Shown here in pieces: positions 1 through 11,241 of a stretch of 64,000 nucleotides of DNA. A program made the translations under genes and the position numbers. The number at the start of each line of letters is the position of its first letter. Position 1 is the first letter of the stretch. Source of the DNA: Phycisphaerae bacterium (GTDB lineage: Bacteria > Planctomycetota > Phycisphaerae > Phycisphaerales > SM1A02); the NCBI GenBank assembly GCA_016873335.1, contig VGXN01000002.1, positions 4,785 to 68,784 of the forward strand, given 5' to 3'. Under the pieces are notes generated by a model. That model worked only from the letters and a program-made list of their open reading frames with translations. It had not been told where the DNA came from and did no database searches.

Positions 1-368
1 AACTGCGCTCGCTCTCGGGTGACGGCACGATCGGGGCAACGCTGCGCTTTGAGGGAATCGTCCGCCGCGCGGAGCGTGACCCCGAGGCGGCGGATGCGGA
101 GCGTGACTTGCTCGCGCTGGACTACCAGACCTATGACCCGATGGCCCAGCGCGAACTCGAAGCGTTGGCCGCGAGCGTGGCAGCGCGGCATGGGCTGAAG
201 TCCATCGTCGCGCTACACAGCCGAGGACGCGTGCGCGTGGGCGAGGTCTCGTTCGTGCTCCAGGTCGCAGCGCCGCACCGCGCCGAGAGCCTCGCCGCAG
301 TCGCCGACTTCATCGATCGGCTGAAGCAGGATGTCCCGATCTGGAAGTGGTCGGTGTGGGCGGTGTAA
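1..368 (+). CDS. moaE: Molybdopterin synthase catalytic subunit MoaE (5'-truncated by window edge)
   Basis: The frame is open from the window edge to the stop at 366-368. The translation ...GATLRFEGIVRR...LDYQTYDPMAQRELEALA...ALHSRGRVRVGEVSFVLQVAAPHRAESLAAVADFIDRLKQDVPIWKW follows the MoaE C-terminal pattern (HR.G...GE, HR.eaF, lK...PiWK). Confidence 0.8.
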   Translation, partial: LRSLSGDGTIGATLRFEGIVRRAERDPEAADAERDLLALDYQTYDPMAQRELEALAASVAARHGLKSIVALHSRGRVRVGEVSFVLQVAAPHRAESLAAVADFIDRLKQDVPIWKWSVWAV

Positions 369-410
369 GGAGCTTGCGCCCTTCGCATCGAATCCGCCAC
401 TCCAGCGTGA

Positions 411-1157
411 TCAACCCAGCACCAGTTTCGCGCCCGCAATCAAGAGCACCGCGGCGAGCGTGATGTTCAGCGCGCGCGGCGTGGCCCGACGGCTGCCCAG
501 GGTCGCGCCGATCAGTCCGCCCAGCGCGGCGCACGCGGCCAGTGGCCACAGGTTCGCCGGCGGCGACCAGCCGCTCTGAACCAGACCCGCGACGCCCGCC
601 GCGGAATTGACGAGGATGAACAGCGACGCCGTCGCCGCCGTGCGCTTGGTGTCAGCCCAGCCCAGGAGCAGCAGCACGGGGCTCAGAAAGATGCCGCCGC
701 CCGTACCCGTGAGGCCAGCGACCAGTCCCAGGACGCCGCCCACGGCGAGCATGAGTGGCAGTTGTGGCGAGCGCATCTCGCGCGTCGCATCGGAAGGCCG
801 CCACGCCAGAGACACCATCCGTGCTGCTGTGAGCACGAGCACGATGCCGATCGCGACCTTGAGCGCGTCAGCGGGTAGTTGAATCATGCCTCCGAAGAAC
901 GCGGCCGGAATCGACGCGGCGGCGAAGGGCCAGAAGAGCGGCCAACGAAAGTGCCCCGCGCGGGCGAACTGCACGAACGCGATGGCGGCGACCAACACAT
1001 TGATCGCGAGCGCTGTGGGGCGCATGACCACGGCCTCGACGCTCATCAACGCCATGACCGCGAGATAGCCCGATGCGCCCGCGTGTCCGACGGCGCCGTA
1101 GAGCGCACCGACGATCAAGAACAGGACGCCGAGGATGGGGAGCGCGTCGTCGCGCAT
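411..1157 (-). CDS. TSUP (TauE/SafE, DUF81) family anion-export membrane protein
   Basis: The 248-aa product is a polytopic Gly/Ala/Leu-rich membrane protein. The N-terminal ...GAVGHAGASGYLAVM... and the second-half repeat ...GLTGTGGGIFLSPVLLLLG... are typical of the TSUP two-repeat architecture. It is the last gene of the minus-strand operon, 9 nt after moaA. Confidence 0.7.
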   Translation of the reverse strand: MRDDALPILGVLFLIVGALYGAVGHAGASGYLAVMALMSVEAVVMRPTALAINVLVAAIAFVQFARAGHFRWPLFWPFAAASIPAAFFGGMIQLPADALKVAIGIVLVLTAARMVSLAWRPSDATREMRSPQLPLMLAVGGVLGLVAGLTGTGGGIFLSPVLLLLGWADTKRTAATASLFILVNSAAGVAGLVQSGWSPPANLWPLAACAALGGLIGATLGSRRATPRALNITLAAVLLIAGAKLVLG

Positions 1158-1166
1158 GGTGAACGA

Positions 1167-2348
1167 CTAGCCGCCGATCGCCGACATTGGGCGCTCGGGC
1201 TGGCGGAACTGGGGCGACGCGATGCCGTGGCCGGGCTGCTTGGTCCATGTCGCGTCGATCAGGAAGTCGCCGATGTGCTCGTCGGTGGTTGCGGAGCGCA
1301 GCAGCGAGCGCAGATCCCACTCAGTCGTGCTGAAGAGGCACGGACGAATCTTGCCGTCGGCGGTGAGGCGGAGGCGGCTGCACGCGCCGCAGAAGGGACT
1401 GCTGATGGGGGCGATGAAGCCAACGCGACCGGGGCGACCATCAGCGAAGGCGAACGAGCGGGCGGTGCTCGAGGGATCGTCGTCGTGGCACGCGACGAGC
1501 GGGAAGCGTTCCTCGATCACGGCCCGCGTCTCTGCGGCGCTCACCCATTTGGAAGCGTCCCAGGCGTGACCGGAGTCGAGCGGCATGTACTCAATGAAGC
1601 GCATGTCGATCGCATACCGTCGGGCCAGTTCCGCGAGGTCCGCCGCTTCGTCATCGTTGAAGCCGCGGATGAGCACGGCGTTGAGCTTGAGCGGCGTCAG
1701 CCCCTCGGCGATCACGGCCTCGACACCCGCAAGGACATCGGCGGGCGAAGAGGTCGAGCGCGTGAGCCGGGCGAAAAGGTCCGCCCGCAGCGAGTCGATG
1801 CTGATCGTGACGCGGTCCAGCCCCGCCGCCTTCCACGCACGCAACGCGTCGCGAGTCAGGAGCGAGGCATTCGTGATCATGGCGATCTCGATGTTCGTCG
1901 CGGCGCGGATGCCGGCGATGATCGCGGTGAGGTCCGGATGCAGCGTTGGCTCGCCGCCCGTGAGGCGGATCTTGTGAACCCCCAACGACTCGGCGATGCG
2001 AGCGACGCGGATGATCTCGCCGGTGGTGAGCAGCGACTCGCGTGGGGCGAAGCGCACTTCGGGTTCCATGCAGTAGGTGCAGCGGAAGTTGCAACGGTCG
2101 GTGATGCTGATCCGCAGGTCGCGGATGGCGCGGCCGTGCGAATCGAGCATGCGGCGAACGGCGCGGATGTGCTCAGGTGCGCGCGGAGGTTGTACAGGGC
2201 GTGAGGGCGCCGTGGCGCGCGGGAACTGGGCAAGCGCAAAGCGACCATCCCGCGCGGCCAGAGCCGCCGCATGGTGCTTCGGGATGGCGGACTCGATCAT
2301 CGACACTGCGACATCTCCACGCACGCGCGTGCTCTGCACCACCATCAA
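1167..2348 (-). CDS. moaA: GTP 3',8-cyclase MoaA (radical SAM, molybdenum cofactor biosynthesis)
   Basis: It has the radical-SAM motif ISITDRCNFRCTYCM, GGEPTL, and the C-terminal auxiliary-cluster motif FCGACSRLRLTADGKIRPCLF. The start ATG overlaps the stop of the upstream CMD gene (ATGA at 2345-2348). Confidence 0.9.
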   Translation of the reverse strand: MMVVQSTRVRGDVAVSMIESAIPKHHAAALAARDGRFALAQFPRATAPSRPVQPPRAPEHIRAVRRMLDSHGRAIRDLRISITDRCNFRCTYCMEPEVRFAPRESLLTTGEIIRVARIAESLGVHKIRLTGGEPTLHPDLTAIIAGIRAATNIEIAMITNASLLTRDALRAWKAAGLDRVTISIDSLRADLFARLTRSTSSPADVLAGVEAVIAEGLTPLKLNAVLIRGFNDDEAADLAELARRYAIDMRFIEYMPLDSGHAWDASKWVSAAETRAVIEERFPLVACHDDDPSSTARSFAFADGRPGRVGFIAPISSPFCGACSRLRLTADGKIRPCLFSTTEWDLRSLLRSATTDEHIGDFLIDATWTKQPGHGIASPQFRQPERPMSAIGG

Positions 2349-2701
2349 TCACCGCGAGCGAACTGCTCGTGCGCCCAGCTCCACGCCGCGACCGTGCGAG
2401 GAAAGCCGACGGTGTTCATCGCGAGAAGGACCGCCTGCTCGACCTCTGCGTGCGTTGCTCCGTGCTGCATCGCTCGGCGAACATGGCTGCGGAGCGCGGA
2501 CTCGAGCCCAGCCCCGACGCAGATTCCGATCTTGATGAGGGACAGCGTCTTGGCGTCGAGCGGGCCGGCCGCCACGACGGCTGAGGCGATGTGCTCATGC
2601 GCGCGGCCGAGGTCCGGGTACTTCTTCACGAAGGCCTTGTATGTCGCGGGGACCTTGCTGCTCTTCTTCGCGGGTGACTTTTTTTGACGTGGTGCGCTCA
2701 T
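2345..2701 (-). CDS. Carboxymuconolactone decarboxylase (AhpD-like) family protein
   Basis: The internal start MSAPRQKK... was chosen because its ATG overlaps the stop of the upstream ORF (ATGA at 2698-2701). The sequence ...LDAKTLSLIKIGICVGAGLESALRSHVRRAMQHGATHAEVEQAVLLAMNTVGFP... resembles the CMD-domain helical pattern. The upstream 94 codons of the track ORF are Arg-rich and overlap the neighbouring gene. Confidence 0.6.
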   Translation of the reverse strand: MSAPRQKKSPAKKSSKVPATYKAFVKKYPDLGRAHEHIASAVVAAGPLDAKTLSLIKIGICVGAGLESALRSHVRRAMQHGATHAEVEQAVLLAMNTVGFPRTVAAWSWAHEQFARGD

Positions 2702-3183
2702 GGGTGTTTGCTCCCGCAGGCCAGCGTGGCTGAAGATCTGTTGGACGGATCGTTCACTGTGTCCGCGACCGAACAAAGAATCGCGTAGTACTCCTCGACA
2801 TCGATGCCGAGCAGCGTGGCTCCGAAGAGTTCGGCCTCGACATGAGACGCGACCTCGCCGTAGTTCACAGAGGGAATGTAGTACGCGATCAACAACGGGA
2901 TCAGATCGTCGACGTTTTCGAACATCGGGTGAATGAACAGGCAGAAGCCGTCCGACGGGTGCTCGCCCAGGCTCTCCACACACGCGAATTCGCCGGGCTG
3001 GAGCGGCTCGGCATCGAATCGGACGCCGAGCGGGTAGCGCACCACGGAACGATCCTCGAGCAGCCGCATCATCCCGCCACGATCCATGGGACCACCGCGG
3101 CGCAGACGCGCGTCCATCGCCTTCGCGACGATGTGGTCACGAAGGGACTGCTGTGCCTCTTCGGCGGTGGGGCGTTGATTCAT
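2698..3183 (-). CDS. Hypothetical protein (161 aa), translationally coupled between NrfD-like and CMD genes
   Basis: This is a clean ORF with ATGA overlaps at both ends (3180-3183 and 2698-2701). Its amino-acid composition is balanced rather than Arg/Ala-biased. I recognise no motif. Confidence 0.55.
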   Translation of the reverse strand: MNQRPTAEEAQQSLRDHIVAKAMDARLRRGGPMDRGGMMRLLEDRSVVRYPLGVRFDAEPLQPGEFACVESLGEHPSDGFCLFIHPMFENVDDLIPLLIAYYIPSVNYGEVASHVEAELFGATLLGIDVEEYYAILCSVADTVNDPSNRSSATLACGSKHP

Positions 3184-4436
3184 GGATGAACTTCCGCGTG
3201 CTCCGCGGCTGCGGAGCTGGCCGTGGTCGCGGCCTCAAAGTCCTGGTCCTCGGTCAGTCGCCCGGTGAGCACGGGCACGGTCACTCGCACGAGGATCGTG
3301 TAGATGAGGATGCCGCCCGCCCAGATGCCCAGTGTGACCAGCGTCTCGTTCATCGTCGGCAGGTACTCGACGATCTCGCCCAGCGGTGTGGGGATGAAGG
3401 CCGGGACGATCATGCCCATGCCCTTCTCGATCCAGATGCCCACGATGAGCATCACGCTTGCGGTCTGCAGCACGGGCAACTTGCGGCTGAGGGGCATGAA
3501 GAGCAGGACCATCGCGACCAGGTTCAGTGCGATCGCGGTCCAGATCCACGGCACGAGCGCCGTCCGGCCATGCAGTCCAAGGAACAGGTACTTGGCCGAG
3601 GCCCCGTGCGCCGAGTCGGTATAGAACTCCGTAAACGCCTCTGAACCGAGCAGGAACATGTTGATCGCGAGCGCGATGGTCACGATGTTCCTCAGCGTCA
3701 AGAAGGCCTTCTCAGGAACCCGATAGGTCGTGAACTTGGCGAGCACCGAGAGCGACAGAATGAGGAACGCCGGCCCTGCCGCGAACGCCGAGGCCAGGAA
3801 CCTAGGCGCGACGACGGCCGAGTTCCAGAAGGGTCGTCCGCCAAGCCCGCTGTACAGGAACGCGGTCACCGTGTGGATGCTGATGGCCCAGACAATGGCC
3901 ACGAAGACGAATGGGATGTAGAAGATCTTGCTGGGCTGACGCCGGCGGTAGGCGCAGTACACGAGATAGCCGCAGATGTGCAGGTTGAGCAGCAGGTAGC
4001 CGTTCAGCACCAGCACATCCCAGGTGAGCATCGAGACCGGGAAGTTGAAACGCATCATCAAGTGCTGAAAGCGATCAGGCCGCCCCAGATCGACCGTGAC
4101 GAAGAGCATCGCCATGATGATCGCCGCCACTGCGAAGAGCTCGCCGAAGATGACCAGGTCATGGAGTTCGCGGTTCTTGTAGATGTAGACGGGGATGACG
4201 AGCATCACCGCCGCGGCCGCCATCCCGACCAAGAAGGTGAAGTTTGCGATGTAGAAGCCCCACGAGACCTGATCGGTCATGCCCGTGGTCGCTAAGCCGT
4301 AGACGAGTTGCTTGCAATACGCGTTGATGCCCAGCAGAACGAACACGGTCAGCAGAAACATCCACGCGTAGTAGCGGGCGTCGCCGACGAAGCTCAGGCG
4401 AAAACAACGGAACAGAAACGTCAGATAGGTTCTCAT
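3180..4436 (-). CDS. NrfD/PsrC-family integral membrane quinol-interacting subunit
   Basis: The 418-aa polytopic membrane protein reads MRTYLTFLFR...YYAWMFLLTVFVLLG...SWGFYIANFTFLVGMAAAAVMLV...DLGRPDRF..., typical of NrfD/PsrC/DsrP/ActC-type subunits. Start M27 of the track ORF was chosen because of the ATGA overlap with the FeS gene stop (4433-4436). Confidence 0.8.
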   Translation of the reverse strand: MRTYLTFLFRCFRLSFVGDARYYAWMFLLTVFVLLGINAYCKQLVYGLATTGMTDQVSWGFYIANFTFLVGMAAAAVMLVIPVYIYKNRELHDLVIFGELFAVAAIIMAMLFVTVDLGRPDRFQHLMMRFNFPVSMLTWDVLVLNGYLLLNLHICGYLVYCAYRRRQPSKIFYIPFVFVAIVWAISIHTVTAFLYSGLGGRPFWNSAVVAPRFLASAFAAGPAFLILSLSVLAKFTTYRVPEKAFLTLRNIVTIALAINMFLLGSEAFTEFYTDSAHGASAKYLFLGLHGRTALVPWIWTAIALNLVAMVLLFMPLSRKLPVLQTASVMLIVGIWIEKGMGMIVPAFIPTPLGEIVEYLPTMNETLVTLGIWAGGILIYTILVRVTVPVLTGRLTEDQDFEAATTASSAAAEHAEVHP

Positions 4437-5554
4437 GTCCGGGCTCCGTTCCACCACTCGGGCGTGCTCGACGCCACGAAGTCCTTCCGAGGCCCGGCCG
4501 CGCCAGGCAGGCAACCATACGCGTCACCCTCTTCGGCCTTGAGCCGCTCGGCGATCGCCACGGCCTCAGGATCAAGCGTGTTCGGGTACCGCTCGTCGAA
4601 GTAGTAGAAGAACCGAGGGAGCGTTCCCACATCCTCCTTGAGCACGAAGACGCGCTTGGTCTTCAGGATCTCCGAGACCTCGGACTTCGGATCAAGCACA
4701 TTCCCGAACTTGCGGGATCCGGTCGGGCAGATCTCCACGCACGCGGGCATCCGCCCCTCGCGTGTGCGGTGCAAGCAGAAATGGCACTTCTCCATCACGC
4801 CCCTTTCGCGTGGGCGATTGGAGAGGTAACTCATGTTGGGGTTGAGTTGTTCCCTCGGCAGGCTGGGCTTGGCGAAGTTGAATCGTCGTGCCCAGTACGG
4901 GCACGCCGCTTCGCAGTACCTGCACCCAATGCACCAGTCATAGTCGATCACGGTGATGCCATCGGGTTCCTGCCATGTTGCTTCGACTGGGCACACCTTG
5001 ACGCAGGGCGGGTTCGCGCACTGGTGGCACTGCACCGGCATGTAGAAGTGGCTGGGATCGGGCACGGTCGGATGGTCGTAGTGGTGGTTTCCCTTCTCGA
5101 CATCGAGCGATCCTCTGGGCATCTCGATCACCCGGATGTACTGGATCTCCGGGCTGCGCGACTGGTTGTTCTCGGCCACGCACGCGTGCACGCACTTGCG
5201 GCACCCGATGCAGCGCGAGAGATTGAGCGCATAGACGAACTCGACGCCCTCCATCGGCTTCACATCTCGAAGGTGCGGGCGCACCGCGTATCGATCCTCC
5301 ACCTTCTTGCGGATGCGTTCGAGCGCCGCCTCCATCTCCTCGGGCGTCATGGCCTTGTAGTGCTTCTGCAGGAACTCATCGAAGTTCGGGACATCATCCG
5401 ACGACAGCTCGCGCAACGGGCTCAACGCAGCCGCCAGCGCCGCCATGCCACCCACGGCCGCCGCCCCGGTGCGAAGGAAACTTCGCCGCGTCTGCTCCGA
5501 TTCAGAACCGGAATGATTTTTGGAAGGTCCCTCCCAGATCCGAATGTCGGTCAT
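4433..5554 (-). CDS. Tat-exported 4Fe-4S ferredoxin-type subunit (NrfC/HybA/DsrO-like)
   Basis: It has a twin-arginine signal (TRRSFLRTGAAAVGGMAALAAA). The cluster motifs are CIGCRKCVHAC, CHQCANPPCVKVCP, CIGCRYCEAACP and CHFC...C.EICP. It overlaps both neighbours by ATGA. Confidence 0.85.
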   Translation of the reverse strand: MTDIRIWEGPSKNHSGSESEQTRRSFLRTGAAAVGGMAALAAALSPLRELSSDDVPNFDEFLQKHYKAMTPEEMEAALERIRKKVEDRYAVRPHLRDVKPMEGVEFVYALNLSRCIGCRKCVHACVAENNQSRSPEIQYIRVIEMPRGSLDVEKGNHHYDHPTVPDPSHFYMPVQCHQCANPPCVKVCPVEATWQEPDGITVIDYDWCIGCRYCEAACPYWARRFNFAKPSLPREQLNPNMSYLSNRPRERGVMEKCHFCLHRTREGRMPACVEICPTGSRKFGNVLDPKSEVSEILKTKRVFVLKEDVGTLPRFFYYFDERYPNTLDPEAVAIAERLKAEEGDAYGCLPGAAGPRKDFVASSTPEWWNGART

Positions 5555-6300
5555 TGGTGGCCTCCCTTGCTGGTCGAGTTCATCGTTTTCGCCGCGTCGA
5601 GTTCACGGAGCCACCGCTGCAGCGGGCTGTGCATCTGGCCGTGATCGTGCGAAGGACTGGCGGGTTGTGCTCCCATGCGGAGCGTGTTGGGACCAGGGAG
5701 TGGTCTGGTGGGCTCGAACTTGGGTGAATGCGGGTTGTGGCACTCGTTGCAGTTGAGGCGACGCTGGGCATCCGAGTGGGTCATCCACGATCCGAGTGTC
5801 TTCCCGTGCGTTCCGCGCTCCCAATCGCGGAAGACCGTTCCGTGACACTGCGCGCACAACTGCGGGGTCTGCGCAAACGGCACGCTGGCTCCGTCCCGCA
5901 GCGTCAGTCGCTCACGATTCTCCGGATCATGGCAGTTGGTGCAGCGGTTGTTCAGCCCGTGCAGCAATCGAATGTCGCCGTGGAAGTTCAGGTTGGCGCC
6001 GGCCGCAGAGTTGGACTGAAAGATCTGGTGGCATCCGTTGCAGTTCTGCGGACTGCCGTCGACGAGGATGTGTGCGGGGTCCGACATCGCCGCCCGCCGG
6101 GGTTTGACGACGAGGTCCCCCCGATCGACCATCGCGGCGGGCGCATAGGTCATTTCACCGTCGCGCGAAAGTGCGAACAGCACCATCGCCAGCGCCACGA
6201 ATCCCATCGGAAGCGACCATCCCAGCCACGCCGCATCGACTCGGGATCCAGGAACGGCGCCAGCCACGATCGGGGGAACAGGTTCAGGTCTCGGCTGCAC
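5551..6300 (-). CDS. Membrane-anchored tetrahaem c-type cytochrome
   Basis: Four CxxCH motifs are present (CNGCH, CTNCH, CAQCH, CNECH), plus one N-terminal TM helix (AAWLGWSLPMGFVALAMVLFAL). The start was set at the GTG at 6300, which is preceded by GGAGG with a 7-nt spacer. The track start at 6432 would run into napD. Confidence 0.75.
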   Translation of the reverse strand: MQPRPEPVPPIVAGAVPGSRVDAAWLGWSLPMGFVALAMVLFALSRDGEMTYAPAAMVDRGDLVVKPRRAAMSDPAHILVDGSPQNCNGCHQIFQSNSAAGANLNFHGDIRLLHGLNNRCTNCHDPENRERLTLRDGASVPFAQTPQLCAQCHGTVFRDWERGTHGKTLGSWMTHSDAQRRLNCNECHNPHSPKFEPTRPLPGPNTLRMGAQPASPSHDHGQMHSPLQRWLRELDAAKTMNSTSKGGHQ

Positions 6301-6430
6301 AGATTGGCCTCCAAATTGGCGAAGTCTACACACTAACGAATTTCGGATATGTTTGTCTACGATATAACAGGCACGGCAAGCTCGGCGTGTGGCGCGAGGC
6401 CAAGGTGTCGGATGACGACGGAGACCGGAC
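6301..6430. promoter_or_regulatory. Divergent promoter/operator region between the cytochrome operon and napDABF
   Basis: This is a 130-bp intergenic spacer between divergent operons. It is locally AT-richer (…gtctacacactaacgaatttcggatatgtttgtctacgatataacagg…) and has a direct repeat GTCTAC at 6324-6329 and 6355-6360. No canonical FNR or NarL box was recognised. Confidence 0.4.
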
Positions 6431-6724
6431 ATGGCGATCAGTGGACTCGTGGTGACGCTCGCAGACGACCCCCTGGGCGAGACGGCACTGGCGGCCCTGA
6501 CCGCTGACTCGCGGCTGACGGTCGGCGAACGATTCGGTCAGCGCCTTGCGCTGGTCGCTGAAACCCCCTGCGCGCGCGACGACCACGACCTCTTCGACGA
6601 ACTCCGTCAGTTGCCCGGCGTCACCCATGTTGACGTGGCCTATGTCCGACTCGACACAGATCCCGACCACTGCGATCACGCTCCCCAAGGCACATCTGCG
6701 AAGGAAACCCATGCTCACCATTGA
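6431..6724 (+). CDS. napD: NapD-like Tat chaperone for periplasmic nitrate reductase
   Basis: The 97-aa product MAISGLVVTLADDP...ALAALTADSRLTVGERFGQRLALVAETP...DLFDELRQLPGVTHVDVAYV has the NapD ferredoxin-like pattern (I.SLVV ... lpGV.s..lvy). It lies immediately upstream of napA and overlaps it. Confidence 0.7.
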   Translation: MAISGLVVTLADDPLGETALAALTADSRLTVGERFGQRLALVAETPCARDDHDLFDELRQLPGVTHVDVAYVRLDTDPDHCDHAPQGTSAKETHAHH

Positions 6725-9128
6725 TCGTCGCACATTCGTCAAAGCATCCGCCATGGCCGCCGCCACCGCCGCGGCATCCGGCTCCGCTCATGCCGTCTCA
6801 CTCCATGTGCTGAACAATCAGCCCGAGGGTTCTTCGCTCACCTGGCAGAAAGCGCCCTGCCGATTCTGCGGCACCGGCTGCCATGTCATGGTCGGCACCG
6901 AGAACGGTCGCGTCGTCGCCATCCAGGGCGACCAGAAGGCCGAGGTCAACAAGGGCTTGCTGTGCGTGAAGGGTTACCACGTGGGCCTGGCGCTCTATGG
7001 CAAAGATCGACTCACCACCCCGATGTTGCGCAAGGACGGGAAACTCGTCCCGATCTCGTGGGACGAGGCCATCGACATCATCGCCAAGCGCATCGCCGAC
7101 AACCCCAAGGCGTTCGCGATGTACGGCTCAGGGCAATGGACCGTCGGAGAAGGCTATGCCGGCAACAAGTTCATGAAGGCCGGACTCGGGAGCAACAACA
7201 TCGACGGCAATCCGCGTCTGTGCATGTCCTCCGCAGTCACCGGGTTCCTCTCGACGTTCGGCGTCGATGAGCCGCCGGGGGCCTACGACGACCTCGACAA
7301 GTGCGATGTCGCCATCATGTGGGGCAACAACATGGCCGAGATGCACCCGGTGCTCTTCTCGCGCCTGGTGGATCGTCGCACGCGCGGCGAGAAGATCACG
7401 ATCATCGACTTCACCACGCGCCGGACCCGCACGAGCGAACAGTCCGACCAGGTCCTGTACTTCAAGCCCAATGGCGACCTTGCCATTGCCAACGGGATCG
7501 CCCACCAGCTCATCAAGAACAACTCGTTCGACAAGGATTTCGTCGAGAAACACTGCAATTTCCGCCAACTCGGCGCGAAGCCCGATGACAAGACCCCGCC
7601 CGACATGCTGGGCGTGCCCATGACCTTTGATGAGTTCGCCAAGGCCGTCGAGCCCTACACCCCGGAAAAGGTGGAGGAACTCTCGGGCGTCCCGGCCGAC
7701 AAGATCCGCATGCTCGGCGAGATGTTTGGCCGACGCGACCTCAAGATCAACAGCCTCTGGTGCATGGGCATGAACCAGCACACAAGGGGGACCGCGATCA
7801 ACTGTCTGGTGCACGGCATCCACCTGCTCAGCGGACACTTCGGCAAGCCGGGCGACGCCGCAACGAGTCTGACCGGTCAGCCGTCCGCCTGCGGCACGGT
7901 GCGCGAAGTTGGCACACTCTGCCACCTTCTCCCCGGCGGAAGACTGGTCGCCAACGCCGAGCACCGCAAGGAAGCGGAAGCGCTCTGGAATGTGCCCGAG
8001 GGACGCATCGGCGACAAGCCTGGGTACCACACCATCGAGTTGTTCAAACGCTTCAACACGCCCACTGACCAGGGCGGTGACATCACCACCGTCTGGGTCC
8101 AGGTCACCAACCCGGGCCAGACCCTCCCGAACCTTCAGCGGAACTTCCGCGAAAAGAAGAACCTCCCGGACAAGTTCCTCATCGTCTCCGATGTCTATCC
8201 GACGGCCACGACCGAACTCGCCGACCTCATCCTTCCCAGCGCGATGTGGGTCGAGAAGAACGGGATGTACGGCAACAGCGAACGGCGGACGCAGCAGTGG
8301 TTCAAGATGGTCCAGCCGCCCGGCGAAGCCCGCGACGACTGCTGGCAGCTCATCGCCGTCTCGAGAAAGCTCATGGACATGGGCGTCGAAGGCATGAAGG
8401 ACAAGGACGGCAAGTGGATCTTCCACACCGCCGACAAGGCCGGAGTCGAAGTGCCGATCTGGGAATGGCCGCACTACTACGACACCAACGTCGACGAGCG
8501 ACTGTTCGAGGAGTACCGCCCCTTCACCACCAAGAAGCACAAGCATCTGGCGCCGTATTCGGAGTATGTCGAGCACCGCGGCATGCGCTGGCCTGTCGTC
8601 CAACAACCCGACGGTTCATGGCGTGAAACCCGTTGGCGTTTCAGCGAGTTCGACGATCCGTTCGTGGCCAAGGGGAAGGGATTCCAGTTCTACCACTCCG
8701 TCAGCAAGGATGACAAGGCACTCATCTGGTTCCGCGCGCACGAGCTCCCGCCCGAGGTGCCAGACCTGGACTACCCCTTCTGGCTCTGCACCGGCCGAGT
8801 GCTTGAGCATTGGCACTCCGGCACGATGACCCGCCGCATTCCGCAACTCCACCGCGCCATGCCCAGGGCGTATGTCGAGATGCACAAGGATGACGCGAGC
8901 CGCTTGGGAATCCAAAACTCCGAAGTCGTCACGGTCAAGAGCCGACGCGGCGAGATCGATCTTCCCGTGTGGATCGGCGGACGAGGCAACCCTCAACCCG
9001 GCGAGGTGTTTGTCCCCTTCTTCGACGAAGGCAAACTCATCAATCTGGTCACGCTCGACGCGTACGACCCGTACTCAAAGCAACCCGACTACAAAAAGTG
9101 TGCCGTGACCATCGTCCGCAAGCCCTAG
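6711..9128 (+). CDS. napA: Periplasmic nitrate reductase catalytic subunit NapA
   Basis: It has a Tat signal (DRRTFVKASAMAAATAAASGSAHA), the 4Fe-4S motif KAPCRFCGTGCHVMV, and then ...GLLCVKGYH..., ...NPRLCMSSAV..., which is the typical NapA sequence. aaggaa lies upstream of the ATG at 6711. Confidence 0.95.
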   Translation: MLTIDRRTFVKASAMAAATAAASGSAHAVSLHVLNNQPEGSSLTWQKAPCRFCGTGCHVMVGTENGRVVAIQGDQKAEVNKGLLCVKGYHVGLALYGKDRLTTPMLRKDGKLVPISWDEAIDIIAKRIADNPKAFAMYGSGQWTVGEGYAGNKFMKAGLGSNNIDGNPRLCMSSAVTGFLSTFGVDEPPGAYDDLDKCDVAIMWGNNMAEMHPVLFSRLVDRRTRGEKITIIDFTTRRTRTSEQSDQVLYFKPNGDLAIANGIAHQLIKNNSFDKDFVEKHCNFRQLGAKPDDKTPPDMLGVPMTFDEFAKAVEPYTPEKVEELSGVPADKIRMLGEMFGRRDLKINSLWCMGMNQHTRGTAINCLVHGIHLLSGHFGKPGDAATSLTGQPSACGTVREVGTLCHLLPGGRLVANAEHRKEAEALWNVPEGRIGDKPGYHTIELFKRFNTPTDQGGDITTVWVQVTNPGQTLPNLQRNFREKKNLPDKFLIVSDVYPTATTELADLILPSAMWVEKNGMYGNSERRTQQWFKMVQPPGEARDDCWQLIAVSRKLMDMGVEGMKDKDGKWIFHTADKAGVEVPIWEWPHYYDTNVDERLFEEYRPFTTKKHKHLAPYSEYVEHRGMRWPVVQQPDGSWRETRWRFSEFDDPFVAKGKGFQFYHSVSKDDKALIWFRAHELPPEVPDLDYPFWLCTGRVLEHWHSGTMTRRIPQLHRAMPRAYVEMHKDDASRLGIQNSEVVTVKSRRGEIDLPVWIGGRGNPQPGEVFVPFFDEGKLINLVTLDAYDPYSKQPDYKKCAVTIVRKP

Positions 9129-9136
9129 GAGATTCC

Positions 9137-9919
9137 ATGTTCAACGCGAACTCATCCTCGCGGTGCTCACCCAAACTGCTCTGGAGCAGCGTCCTGCTGG
9201 TGGCCGGCGCGGCCGTCGCCACGCTTGGGGTCGCGGCGGCGAGTCAGTCCGTGTCAGTCGCTGGGCAGCCCGTGCCCCCAGCCCGTCTGGACACGCAGAT
9301 CCCACGCGGCAATTCCCGTCAAGAAACGATCACATGGCGACTGAACAGTCCTTCGCCCAGGGTCGTTCCCGAGTCACGAGCGAATCCGGCGGCGGTGCCG
9401 GACAAGCTCGCAGCGAGGGTTCGATCGATGGAGCAGCGCGCGTCGCTGCGGGCGTTTGATGGGGCGCCCCCGGTCGTCCCGCACTCCGTCGCCGACCTGA
9501 ACATCCAATCCTGCCTCGCGTGCCATGCCGATGGGCTCAAGGCTGGCGACAAGGTCGCCAAGATGATCTCGCACACCACGCTCACCAACTGCACGCAGTG
9601 CCATGTCGAATCGCAGCCCAACGGTGACCATCCCAACGATCTGTCGCTGGGGAATCTGTTCGTCGGGCTTCGTCCAAGCGGCTATGGCGGCACGCGAGCG
9701 TGGGCAGGAGCACCACCGGTCATGCCGCACACCATGTTCATGCGGACCAACTGCATCAGTTGCCACGGCGAGCACGGATATGACGGGTGGCGCCCGGACC
9801 ATCTGTCCCGAAGCAACTGCGCTCAGTGCCATGTCCCCGCAGCGCAGTTCGAGCAACTCTCCCCAACCTTCGGCATTCCCGACATCGCCGACGGGCAGAC
9901 CACTGCCGATCGGCAATAA
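9137..9919 (+). CDS. napB: Tetrahaem cytochrome c made of two tandem NapB-like dihaem modules
   Basis: aggag lies 5 nt upstream of the ATG at 9137, and there is an N-terminal signal/anchor. Two internally similar modules are visible: GAPPVVPHS...CLACH...NCTQCHV and GAPPVMPHT...CISCH...NCAQCHV. This is the NapB signature (PP.iPH, C..CH, C.QCHV) twice over. Confidence 0.8.
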   Translation: MFNANSSSRCSPKLLWSSVLLVAGAAVATLGVAAASQSVSVAGQPVPPARLDTQIPRGNSRQETITWRLNSPSPRVVPESRANPAAVPDKLAARVRSMEQRASLRAFDGAPPVVPHSVADLNIQSCLACHADGLKAGDKVAKMISHTTLTNCTQCHVESQPNGDHPNDLSLGNLFVGLRPSGYGGTRAWAGAPPVMPHTMFMRTNCISCHGEHGYDGWRPDHLSRSNCAQCHVPAAQFEQLSPTFGIPDIADGQTTADRQ

Positions 9920-9930
9920 GATGAGGCACC

Positions 9931-10617
9931 ATGCACGAGGACCCGGGTCTCTCTCGGCGTGACCTCCTGCGCGGTCGGCTCTTGGGTCAGTTCCTCGGTC
10001 GGCTCGCGCAAGCTGCAACGAACAAGGTTCAGGCGGTGCAGGAAGCTGTCGCCAGCTCCGCCGCGTCGCAAGCGAAACCCGCTGACCCAGACCCGACCGC
10101 CTCGGGCGCGATGGGCCGTCGATTGGCTCTCCCGATCCACCGCCCGCCCGGCGCGATCGATGAAGTCTCGTTCCTCGCTGGCTGCACGCGATGCAATGAG
10201 TGCGTCACAGCTTGCCCCGTTGGTGCGATCGTTCACGCACCGGCCAAGTTCCGCGCCGCGGCGGGAACGCCCATGATCGACCCCCACACGGCGGCGTGCA
10301 TCATGTGCACGGACACTCCCTGCATCACCGCGTGCAAGCCCGGAGTACTCAGGGCCGACCAGCCGCGGGCCATGGGTGTGGCATGGATTCAGACGATGGC
10401 CTGTCTCGCGCACACTGGCTCGTTCTGCACCGTCTGCTCCGAGCAATGCCCGGTGCCTGGCGCGATCGAAGTTCACGCCTGCAAGCCCACGATCCGACCC
10501 GACGCGTGTACCGGGTGTGGCGTATGCGCCAATGTCTGTCCGGCACCAACGAACGCAATCGTCGTCATGCCGCTGGCCGATCGACGGACCAGATCGTCCT
10601 CATCGGGCCACCACTGA
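9931..10617 (+). CDS. napF: NapF-like polyferredoxin (4Fe-4S clusters)
   Basis: It has an N-terminal SRRDLLRG Tat-like remnant and the motif RPPGAIDEVSFLAGCTRCNECVTACP, typical of NapF (RPPwa..e..F...CtrC..C..aC). Further clusters are CIMCTDTPCITAC, C..CSEQCP and CTGCGVCANVCP. Confidence 0.7.
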   Translation: MHEDPGLSRRDLLRGRLLGQFLGRLAQAATNKVQAVQEAVASSAASQAKPADPDPTASGAMGRRLALPIHRPPGAIDEVSFLAGCTRCNECVTACPVGAIVHAPAKFRAAAGTPMIDPHTAACIMCTDTPCITACKPGVLRADQPRAMGVAWIQTMACLAHTGSFCTVCSEQCPVPGAIEVHACKPTIRPDACTGCGVCANVCPAPTNAIVVMPLADRRTRSSSSGHH

Positions 10618-10721
10618 TGAGCGTTGGCCCGTTGGCCCGCTCAACGAGGCAAGGCATCCCGCAATCTCGCCAGCCACGACGCCCCACGCGGGCCGATTCG
10701 GCCACGCCGCCAGTCAACGAG

Positions 10722-10751
10722 AAGGCCCGCCTCGACTTCGAGGCGGGCCTT
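10722..10751. terminator. GC-rich 13-bp hairpin between napF and tRNA-Asn
   Basis: aaggcccgcctcg-actt-cgaggcgggcctt is a perfect 13-bp stem with a 4-nt loop. It has no long U-tract, so it may be a bidirectional terminator or a processing element. Confidence 0.5.
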
Positions 10752-10754
10752 GAA

Positions 10755-10826
10755 CTCCCCCAGCTGGACTCGAACCAGCAACCTGGCGGTTAACAGCCGC
10801 CCGCTCTACCATTGAGCTATAGGGGA
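10755..10826 (-). tRNA. tRNA-Asn (GTT)
   Basis: The minus-strand sequence TCCCCTATAGCTCAATGGTAGAGCGGGCGGCTGTTAACCGCCAGGTTGCTGGTTCGAGTCCAGCTGGGGGAG folds as a cloverleaf. The acceptor stem is TCCCCTA/TGGGGGA, the anticodon stem is GGCGG/CCGCC with loop CTGTTAA, and the T-arm is GCTGG-TTCGAGT-CCAGC. CCA is not encoded. Confidence 0.9.
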
Positions 10827-10926
10827 ATGGAACGAAAATAGTAACGGGGTAGCCCTCATCGTCAAGCGAAGAGGGTTTCTGCAAAGTTCTCAGACCGAAT
10901 TCGCGATAACCACTTACCTGCCCCGC

Positions 10927-10954
10927 TTGCATTGTCGGGCCATTGGCATAGACT
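10927..10954 (+). promoter_or_regulatory. Putative sigma70-type promoter of rpmE
   Basis: TTGCAT (10927-10932), a 16-nt spacer, then TAGACT (10949-10954), about 27 nt upstream of the rpmE ATG. This is a pattern match only. Confidence 0.3.
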
Positions 10955-10980
10955 CAACGACCCGACTTGGAGACAACAGC

Positions 10981-11241
10981 ATGAAGCAAGACATCCATCC
11001 CAAGTATTACCCAGAGTGCAAGGTGAACTACCGCGGCGAAGTCGTGATGACAGTCGGCGCGACCGTTCCAGAACTCAATGTCGAAGTGTGGTCTGGGTCG
11101 CACCCCTACTACACGGGTCAGAAGACCTTCATCGACACGGCGGGTCGCGTCGAGCGGTTCCAGCGCAAGTTCGCCGGCGACTACTTCGGCAAGGACAAGT
11201 CCAAGTCGAAGGGCGCAGCGAAGCCTGACGCGAAGAAGTAG
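10981..11241 (+). CDS. rpmE: 50S ribosomal protein L31 (Cys-poor, non-zinc form)
   Basis: MKQDIHPKYYPECKVNYRGEVVMTVGATVPELNVEVWSGSHPYYTGQKTFIDTAGRVERFQRKF is the L31 signature (MK.DIHP.Y ... HP.yTG.q...dt.GRv.kF). The CxxC pairs are absent. Confidence 0.9.
   Translation: MKQDIHPKYYPECKVNYRGEVVMTVGATVPELNVEVWSGSHPYYTGQKTFIDTAGRVERFQRKFAGDYFGKDKSKSKGAAKPDAKK

Follow-up and report, generated by a model that had tools for sequence, protein, structure and literature searches.

How does a periplasmic nitrate reductase (Nap) draw electrons from the quinol pool when its customary electron donors are not encoded alongside it? This question is raised by a stretch of DNA of 64,000 nucleotides, referred to here in its entirety as the window (contig C2:4785-68784), from a lake-water metagenome-assembled genome of the Phycisphaerae (phylum Planctomycetota), in which a napD-napA-napB-napF operon is divergent from a string of seven genes on the minus strand. 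That string begins with the genes for a membrane-anchored tetrahaem cytochrome c, an iron-sulfur (FeS) protein exported via the twin-arginine translocation (Tat) pathway and an NrfD-family membrane subunit, which we jointly term the trio. The textbook quinol-oxidizing partners of Nap are NapC and NapGH, to which Qcr was added more recently, and these are the inputs on which surveys of nitrate reduction by gene content depend. An earlier, sequence-only reading of this locus had proposed that the trio is the quinol dehydrogenase that feeds Nap. We favor the trio as the route by which quinol feeds Nap in this organism, at a probability of about 0.6: it is a plausible quinol-oxidizing module, it is the sole candidate beside a Nap operon devoid of NapC and NapGH, and the adjacency recurs in other Planctomycetota. 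The proposal does not stand in the sense of a component dedicated to Nap, because the same module is also found with an octahaem cytochrome, at loci devoid of nap genes, and beside nap clusters with NapG and NapH of their own.

A nitrate reductase lacking NapC and NapGH

All eleven genes of the locus are present at the positions collected in Table 1, so that the divergent arrangement of napD-napA-napB-napF and the seven-gene minus-strand string is as the sequence-only reading had described it. By their sequence features the plus-strand genes encode a periplasmic nitrate reductase, comprised of NapA and a tandem tetrahaem NapB, with NapD and NapF as predicted cytoplasmic helpers. The Pfam domains recovered in NapA are Molybdop_Fe4S4, Molybdopterin and Molydop_binding; its closest solved proteins are 3ml1, 2nya and 1ogy (E 1e-215 to 1e-222), and it is nearest to the heterodimeric NapAB enzymes. 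Its ATG start yields MLTIDRRTF, which contains the Tat motif, and overlaps napD by 14 nucleotides. In L004, L005, L026, L027, L030 and L085 (L-numbers denote compared loci and G-numbers compared genomes), napD likewise stands ahead of napA, at a conserved size. Two NapB-like dihaem modules in tandem make up the NapB-like subunit, and a phmmer search of the solved structures with this protein matched no NapB. The subunits encoded after napA in L006, L008, L017 and L018 likewise have four haem motifs, and hence the tetrahaem form of NapB is common in these Nap systems. The last gene of the operon encodes a poly-ferredoxin; because no hydrophobic h-region comes after its SRRDLLRG motif, while a homologue in L009, encoded beside NapH, has a true Tat signal, we kept the napF label and regard the protein as probably cytoplasmic. 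At one of the compared loci (G390:C232:8098-10495) the NapA beside the module occupies two frames that overlap (residues 2-454 and 446-801), reflecting either a frameshift or an assembly error.

The assembly that contains the window spans 2.0 Mb in 228 contigs and is 90.4% complete, and the nearest relatives of the window proteins are from Phycisphaerae. A search for sequencing runs listed 15 lake-water DNA datasets and no RNA dataset. A search of this whole assembly recovered no match to the NapC/NirT family (PF03264) and no NapH above the cut-off, the best score being 54.5 bits inside a 751-residue frame on another contig; the only NapG-like match is the napF gene. The absence of NapC and NapGH that had been recorded for the window thus extends to the entire assembly. 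We also searched for the absent partners in five Planctomycetota genomes that are 99-100% complete and share the pairing of nap with the trio. Among them, G270, which is a single closed contig, G136 and G137 (each 99% complete) contain neither NapC/NirT nor NapH above the cut-offs. NrfA, NirK and NirS were not found in the assembly of the window, where the single marginal match to Cytochrom_C552 (24.6 bits) falls on an ActA-like pentahaem open reading frame (ORF), and a nos cluster like that of L004 was not found there either; as far as can be seen in this assembly, nitrate reduction appears to stop at nitrite. Eight open frames with good codon bias and at least two haem motifs were detected in the assembly, and the only tetrahaem frames among them are those of the trio cytochrome and the NapB-like protein.

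Affinities of the cytochrome/FeS/NrfD trio

The cytochrome of the trio displays four invariant CxxCH motifs and a single N-terminal transmembrane (TM) helix across 47 homologues. It matches the NrfH and NrfB models weakly (18-20 bits for NrfH, and 19 bits against a cut-off of 184 for NrfB). Its orthologue in G070 shows a weak match to PF03264 (21.6 bits), the sole PF03264 signal near nap in that genome, which hints at a distant NapC/NrfH-like haem core in this cytochrome, as has been reported for the Geobacter protein CbcS. An AlphaFold2 (AF2) model of the cytochrome (pLDDT 80.6) retrieved nothing with Foldseek at E <= 0.001, and VIA-align matched the TM helix alone (Z <= 3.1). In the FeS protein all 16 cluster cysteines are invariant. 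Its nearest families are, in order, DsrO (178.3 bits, cut-off 200), QrcC (145 bits), ArrB, TtrB and NrfC (104 bits, cut-off 378), and its solved relatives are ArrB, PsrB and ActB. The NrfD subunit exceeds the cut-off of the NCBIfam DsrP model (NF045798; 415.5 against 350 bits), and obtains 45 bits with QrcD, 40 with HybB and 28 with NrfD (cut-off 348).

Three residues of the NrfD subunit, D116, S135 and K338, are invariant in an alignment of ten homologues reaching down to 44% identity. A HMMER alignment to Rhodothermus ActC (PDB: 6f0k) pairs them with H139, S164 and R395, which are respectively the quinol-deprotonating residue, the conserved serine of the quinone site and the mid-membrane gate of that protein, the gate being a lysine in Desulfovibrio vulgaris DsrP (PMC8076601). 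Because the quinone-site aspartate and serine and the gate lysine are invariant and align with these functional residues of ActC, it is plausible that the trio can react with quinol at the periplasmic face.

Several known complexes were considered as the identity of the trio and rejected. The DsrMKJOP complex resembles it in that the NrfD subunit passes the DsrP model, has about 10 TM segments and shares its gate lysine with D. vulgaris DsrP; however, DsrJ has three haems whereas the cytochrome of the window has four and no DsrJ match, the DsrO score stays under its cut-off, no dsrMK-like genes are adjacent and there is no dsrA in the assembly. Likewise, NrfABCD of Escherichia coli shares with the trio a quinol-oxidizing NrfD, a Tat-exported four-cluster NrfC and a multihaem relay to a periplasmic N-oxide reductase, but its cytochrome is a soluble pentahaem protein and its acceptor is NrfA, in contrast to the anchored tetrahaem cytochrome and the proposed acceptor Nap in the window; no NrfA partner was found in the assembly, and the NrfD, NrfC and NrfB scores given above fall far below their cut-offs. 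Alternative complex III (ACIII) was set aside as the identity of the trio itself on account of an FeS protein of 373 residues without a molybdopterin-like domain, a four-haem cytochrome and the lack of ActD, ActE and ActF in the operon. The high conservation of the trio genes (82-92% identity within the clade of the window and 80-92% among Phycisphaerae) could have suggested a housekeeping respiratory complex, but 13 of the 14 genomes sampled from the same order, and the only one from the same family, gave no match to the trio. By its distribution the trio is an accessory module.

The most economical reading of its architecture, namely a TM-anchored tetrahaem cytochrome, a Tat-exported four-cluster FeS protein, a DsrP-like haem-free subunit and no catalytic subunit, is that of a general quinol:periplasmic-cytochrome oxidoreductase of the Cbc4 or DsrOhPh-tetrahaem type. 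Cbc4 of Geobacter sulfurreducens (CbcS/CbcT/CbcU, GSU0068-0070) is a proposed menaquinol:cytochrome c oxidoreductase (bioRxiv 10.1101/2025.04.14.648717). Compared with the trio by description rather than by sequence, it has the same three components: a tetrahaem cytochrome c anchored in the membrane, a partner carrying four [4Fe-4S] clusters, and an integral membrane subunit devoid of haem; it differs in having been discussed for extracellular electron transfer, its role being unknown, with no link to Nap described and no companion of 161 residues reported. The 'DsrOhPh-tetrahaem' locus of cable bacteria, other Desulfobulbales and some Gamma- and Betaproteobacteria is of unknown function and was described as a 'candidate alternative complex III' (PMC13047784). 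It too, again as compared by description, pairs a tetrahaem cytochrome with proteins resembling DsrO and DsrP at a site apart from dsrMK, and occurs also in hosts without sulfur metabolism; unlike the locus in the window, it has no reported linkage to nap, and cable bacteria add a small TM protein, TMH1, and not a cytoplasmic protein of 161 residues. In Thermosulfurimonas dismutans, an Hao homologue, an NrfD, a 4Fe-4S protein and a TM cytochrome c lie beside napMADGH, and nitrite reduction was guessed as their function (PMC5276818); that locus matches the octahaem-bearing relatives of the module described below, whereas the window lacks both the octahaem gene and napGH. Relative to classical Nap systems with NapC or NapGH and to the Qcr-fed Nap of Campylobacter, the system in the window shares NapA, NapD, NapF and a NapB-type cytochrome, and differs in lacking NapC and NapGH, in its tandem tetrahaem NapB and in an input module of the NrfD type. 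Our search of the literature found no paper assigning a cytochrome/FeS/NrfD module to Nap, and a review of the NrfD family lists no Nap-linked complex (PMC8076601). What appears to be new here, and is partly supported by the observations, is a Nap system wired through an NrfD module of the Cbc4 or DsrOhPh type, along with the prediction of a chaperone role for the protein of 161 residues.

Public records name some Phycisphaerae orthologues of the NrfD subunit 'sulfate reduction electron transfer complex DsrMKJOP subunit DsrP', though the genome is without dsrA. Judging from the gene content, the DsrP label on such proteins is likely to be a systematic mis-annotation; as the model labels sulfate-reduction subunits in genomes without dsrAB, it can mislead metabolic inference from metagenomes.

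Distribution of the module and the proposed electron route to Nap

In order to place the pairing in a comparative context, 401 Planctomycetota genomes were sampled for NrfD-like and NapA-like genes; the counts were made by hand, and related genomes among them are not independent samples. An NrfD-like gene is present in 79 and a NapA-like gene in 82 of these genomes; both occur together in 51, against about 16 expected by chance, and lie within a few kb of each other in 38. A scan of species-representative genomes with an alignment of the NrfD subunit yielded at least 595 related loci, of which the best 80 were kept; these 80 come from Planctomycetota, Verrucomicrobiota (Opitutae, Pedosphaera, Limisphaerales) and Elusimicrobiota. 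The window proteins were mapped on 102 loci, in which the three trio genes always travel together, and 92 loci entered a maximum likelihood tree of NrfD. Many of the Verrucomicrobiota and Elusimicrobiota loci contain the trio alone, mostly followed by a homologue of the protein of 161 residues. The sequence-only reading had asked for the phylogeny and synteny of these subunits, and on this count the outcome is divided: adjacency to nap indeed recurs in several layouts, but the commoner partner of the module is an octahaem cytochrome. The latter is a protein of about 490 residues with a signal peptide and eight CxxCH motifs (e.g. L008:9259-10707, L012:9955-11466), which belongs to the HAO family (best solved relative 4qo5, E 1.7e-49, followed by HAO and HDH entries) and is probably a quinol-fed nitrite or hydroxylamine reductase. 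No octahaem homologue was recovered by tblastn in the assembly of the window, nor was one found in G270, G070, G300 and G137, which are 99-100% complete and have the nap pairing.

The linkage to nap takes four forms: 1) A divergent nap operon without the octahaem gene, seen in the clade of the window (L004, L005, L026, L027, L030, L085) and in a deep clade (L017, L018, L019), which takes in most of the nap-trio genomes of the 401-genome sample. 2) A collinear nap operon that follows the octahaem gene (L006, L007, L008, L045). 3) A divergent nap operon with the octahaem gene present (L072). 4) A more distant NapA that is accompanied by its own tetrahaem cytochrome, NapG and NapH (L009, L047, L067). 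In the NrfD tree the window falls in a clade of seven rows (support 99), of which six have divergent nap and the seventh is a short contig, and this clade is nested among octahaem-linked loci (support 96). Mapped on the tree, the octahaem linkage requires 5 changes and the nap linkage at least 13. From this nesting and these change counts, the lineage of the window therefore lost the octahaem gene and kept nap, and nap has joined or left the module many times. A haem-free protein of about 466 residues with a signal peptide and a weak match to Alginate_exp, an outer-membrane barrel family, adjoins the module in L004 (11703-13103); weaker homologues occur in L006, L008, L038, L045, L067 and L101, and none is present in the window.

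Building on the observed gene content, topology signals, conserved residues and synteny, we infer a direction of electron flow, a step from the cytochrome to NapB and a role for the chaperone as follows. The NrfD/DsrP-like subunit would oxidize menaquinol at its quinone site, which faces the periplasm. Electrons would then traverse the four [4Fe-4S] clusters carried by the Tat-exported FeS protein, reach the anchored tetrahaem cytochrome, and move onward via the tetrahaem NapB to NapA. Prior to export, the protein of 161 residues would hold the twin-arginine signal and the unfinished cluster site of the FeS protein. In most relatives the module would instead serve the octahaem cytochrome, a probable nitrite reductase, and in relatives with both enzymes a single module could serve both nitrate reduction and HAO-type nitrite reduction. 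In the organism of the window, Nap is the only linked acceptor of the trio.

Several observations weigh against this route. In 55 of the 92 tree loci the NrfD gene is immediately followed by the octahaem gene, and the trio is accordingly not specific to Nap; many loci, of Opitutae-type Verrucomicrobiota and Elusimicrobiota, have neither nap nor an octahaem gene within 10 kb; and in the fourth layout, where NapG and NapH are at hand, the adjacency may be at the level of the pathway only. The first and the last of these observations, together with the small number of changes in octahaem linkage relative to nap linkage and the nesting of the window's clade among octahaem-linked loci, are what would be expected if the trio were a relic or a pathway-level neighbor, which passes no electrons to Nap and has the octahaem cytochrome or an unknown acceptor as its true partner. 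We consider this unlikely, since the octahaem homologue is missing from the assembly and from the four nearly complete nap-paired relatives examined for it, and the trio is intact, conserved within its clade and locked by ATGA overlaps, and therefore under selection with nap as its only linked acceptor. An incomplete assembly in 228 contigs also leaves space for a canonical napC or napGH, as the real input, in the unassembled tenth of the genome. This is very improbable: the three relatives mentioned above, one of them closed, share the pairing and lack NapC/NirT and NapH, and the napC or napGH genes of known systems are located within the nap operon, which is complete here.

The main rival to the trio as the donor is an ACIII encoded elsewhere in the genome. 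A string for an ActB fragment, ActC, ActD, ActE and ActF lies at C11:27781-38274, beside genes for a caa3-type oxidase, and the ActA-like pentahaem ORF is on a separate small contig (C127:1942-2595). ACIII constitutes the aerobic branch of this organism and a rival electron route to Nap, in which it would feed NapB via c-type cytochromes while the trio serves some other periplasmic acceptor. Such an input has a published precedent: Qcr, a cytochrome bc-type complex, feeds Nap in Campylobacter jejuni (PMC6195509), and on this point the sequence-only reading, which had given NapC or NapGH as the full list of Nap inputs, was mistaken, as the ACIII of this genome could do likewise. We nevertheless hold the ACIII route to be improbable: ACIII adjoins oxidase genes and not nap, the recurrent adjacency of nap and the trio would be left unexplained, and searches of the assembly for an alternative acceptor of the trio's electrons turned up no octahaem cytochrome, NrfA, NirK or NirS.

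If the trio does feed Nap, then in the Planctomycetota, the Verrucomicrobiota and uncultured lineages related to them, nitrate respiration would run through an unstudied complex, one that seems to feed an HAO-type nitrite reductase too. It might also conserve energy, in that proton translocation by the DsrP-like subunit would make periplasmic nitrate reduction electrogenic, and a physiological role that can be tested would be at hand for the orphan modules of Geobacter (Cbc4) and cable bacteria (DsrOhPh-tetrahaem). A bolder proposal, that the trio represents a distinct and so far unpublished class of quinol dehydrogenase for Nap which may translocate protons, and that its companion of 161 residues founds a new family of chaperones, a dead zincin gripping RRSFLR, is offered tentatively and with some doubt.

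The companion protein and the neighboring genes

The protein of 161 residues encoded after the NrfD gene is found with the module in both Planctomycetota and Verrucomicrobiota. A signal peptide is absent from it, and no Pfam or NCBIfam family matches it; phmmer against the PDB retrieved nothing, Foldseek nothing at E <= 0.001, and in the Atlas it belongs to unnamed clusters only, with leads to peptidases M78/U49 at 0.81. Its invariant residues include H17, R49, E65, N107, E118, Y132, Y133 and C137. An AlphaFold2 model based on 29 homologues (pLDDT 92.7, pTM 0.84) has as its nearest folds in VIA-align the minimal zincins and IrrE/ImmA-type proteins, at mid-range Z scores of 6.6-8.9: 6d2s (Z 8.9, root-mean-square deviation 5.1 over 116 residues), 4jiu (Z 7.9, 3.3 over 100 residues), 8sln (Z 7.8) and 4qhf (Z 6.6). 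The helix after the sheet has no HExxH, for which reason a protease role was rejected, and we read the model as a dead zincin-like fold.

The predicted complex of this protein with the FeS protein received a score of 0.79, whereas the best of three controls reached 0.04. In calibration, 58 of 80 solved complexes attained the 0.79 mark, as did 2 of 110 mismatched pairs; these counts hold only roughly here, as we supplied our own alignments. At least 71% of contacts are shared between the runs, and the pLDDT of the partners is at least 85. On the FeS protein the predicted interface comprises residues 23-28, which are the RRSFLR motif, along with 189-191 and 206-213 around the third cluster motif; R24 is placed against Y133 and C137, and C208/I209 against H17. 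With binding supported by this prediction, the protein is a candidate Tat-proofreading or cluster-insertion chaperone of the FeS subunit, providing a concrete binding hypothesis for a family without annotation. It has no sequence or fold likeness to the known families of redox enzyme maturation proteins (NapD, TorD/DmsD/NarJ). Small ORFs that follow the NrfD gene in L018 and L019, of the deep nap-divergent clade, are unrelated to it (hhalign probability <1%). Cys/Gly-rich stretches (GGCGCSG..., CGCGGGCSCH) occur in many genomes, both immediately ahead of the twin-arginine motif of FeS homologues (e.g. L060:91-1116, L030:8829-10004, L048:8943-10004) and as C-terminal tails of homologues of the 161-residue protein (e.g. 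L081:11274-11780, L089:1381-1899, L079:11278-11793); they suggest that metal or clusters are handled at the predicted interface.

Table 1. Features of the nap/trio locus, with positions counted from the first nucleotide of the window
Feature	Position	Strand	Basis
moaE 3' part, edge of molybdenum cofactor biosynthesis island	1-368	+	tblastn with L004 proteins
TSUP/TauE-family permease, 248 aa	411-1157	-	PF01925 121.8 bits
moaA (GTP 3',8-cyclase)	1167 to about 2306	-	TIGR02666 342 vs cut-off 284
CMD/AhpD-family protein, 118 aa, no CxxC	2345-2701	-	Pfam CMD 50.5 bits
Cytoplasmic protein, 161 aa, candidate Tat-proofreading/assembly chaperone of FeS subunit	2698-3183	-	predicted complex, synteny
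NrfD-family membrane subunit, DsrP-like, 418 aa, about 10 TM segments	3180-4436	-	PF03916 146 bits
Tat-exported 4x[4Fe-4S] protein, DsrO/NrfC/PsrB-like, 373 aa	4433-5554	-	RRSFLR, four Cys clusters
Membrane-anchored tetrahaem cytochrome c, CbcS-like	5551-6300	-	one N-terminal TM helix, four CxxCH
Divergent control region, 130 bp, between the two operons	6301-6430	.	start-codon assignment
napD, 97 aa, NapA-specific chaperone	6431-6724	+	place and size; Pfam NapD 23.7 bits, under 28-bit cut-off
napA, Mo-bisPGD catalytic subunit, Tat signal MLTIDRRTFVKA	6711-9128	+	NCBIfam NF010055 904.1 vs cut-off 904
NapB-like tetrahaem cytochrome, 260 aa, signal peptide	9137-9919	+	four CxxCH; Pfam NapB 41.2 vs 25.1
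napF-type poly-ferredoxin, 228 aa	9931-10617	+	NapG 93 bits, MauM/NapG 74, NapF 58, all under cut-offs

The limits of the control region follow from the start codons. The best start of the cytochrome is a GTG at 6300, with GGAGG 8 nucleotides upstream; a longer ORF reaching back to 6432, which would abut napD, is unlikely. A scan of positions 1-11200 for promoters and terminators detected no sigma-70-like promoter in the 130-bp spacer and no terminator inside the minus-strand gene string, with counts at or below the shuffled expectation. The sequence-only reading had recorded five ATGA overlaps between the genes of this string. Those at 5551, 4433, 3180 and 2698 are exact, whereas the fifth, at 2345, reads GATTGATGG, that is TTGA or TGATG and not ATGA. 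The conserved N-terminus of MoaA, as judged from its L004 orthologue, starts at residue 14 of the long ORF, and a GTG at 2306 is preceded by GGAG, with an ATG at 2300 as the alternative. Because these features move the start of moaA by about 40 nucleotides downstream, the gene for the CMD protein and moaA are probably separated by a gap of about 40 nucleotides without any overlap; the corresponding spacing in L004 is 39 nucleotides. The gap of 9 nucleotides recorded between moaA and the TSUP gene is correct.

An island of genes for synthesis of the molybdenum cofactor (Moco) beside its main client is ordinary for molybdoenzymes. Here MobA, MoaB, MoaC, MoeA, MoaD and MoaE are encoded at C2:1224-5143 (tblastn with L004 queries), mostly upstream of the window, with moaD and moaE as a convergent pair just upstream on the contig. 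The CMD-moaA-TSUP genes follow the module in the window, L004 and L085; MoaA also occurs near nap in L019, L030 and L067 and is absent from the other nap-linked loci, such that it is adjacent in 5 of about 19 of them. By this distribution the Moco genes are a lineage-specific neighborhood, incidental to the conserved module and outside it. The suggestion that coupling to moaA reflects co-regulated supply of the cofactor is not supported, given the improbable overlap, the low incidence of MoaA at nap-linked loci and the lineage-specific character of the island. The CMD/AhpD protein without CxxC is paired with moaA in the window, L004, L085 and L019, at 70-79% identity.

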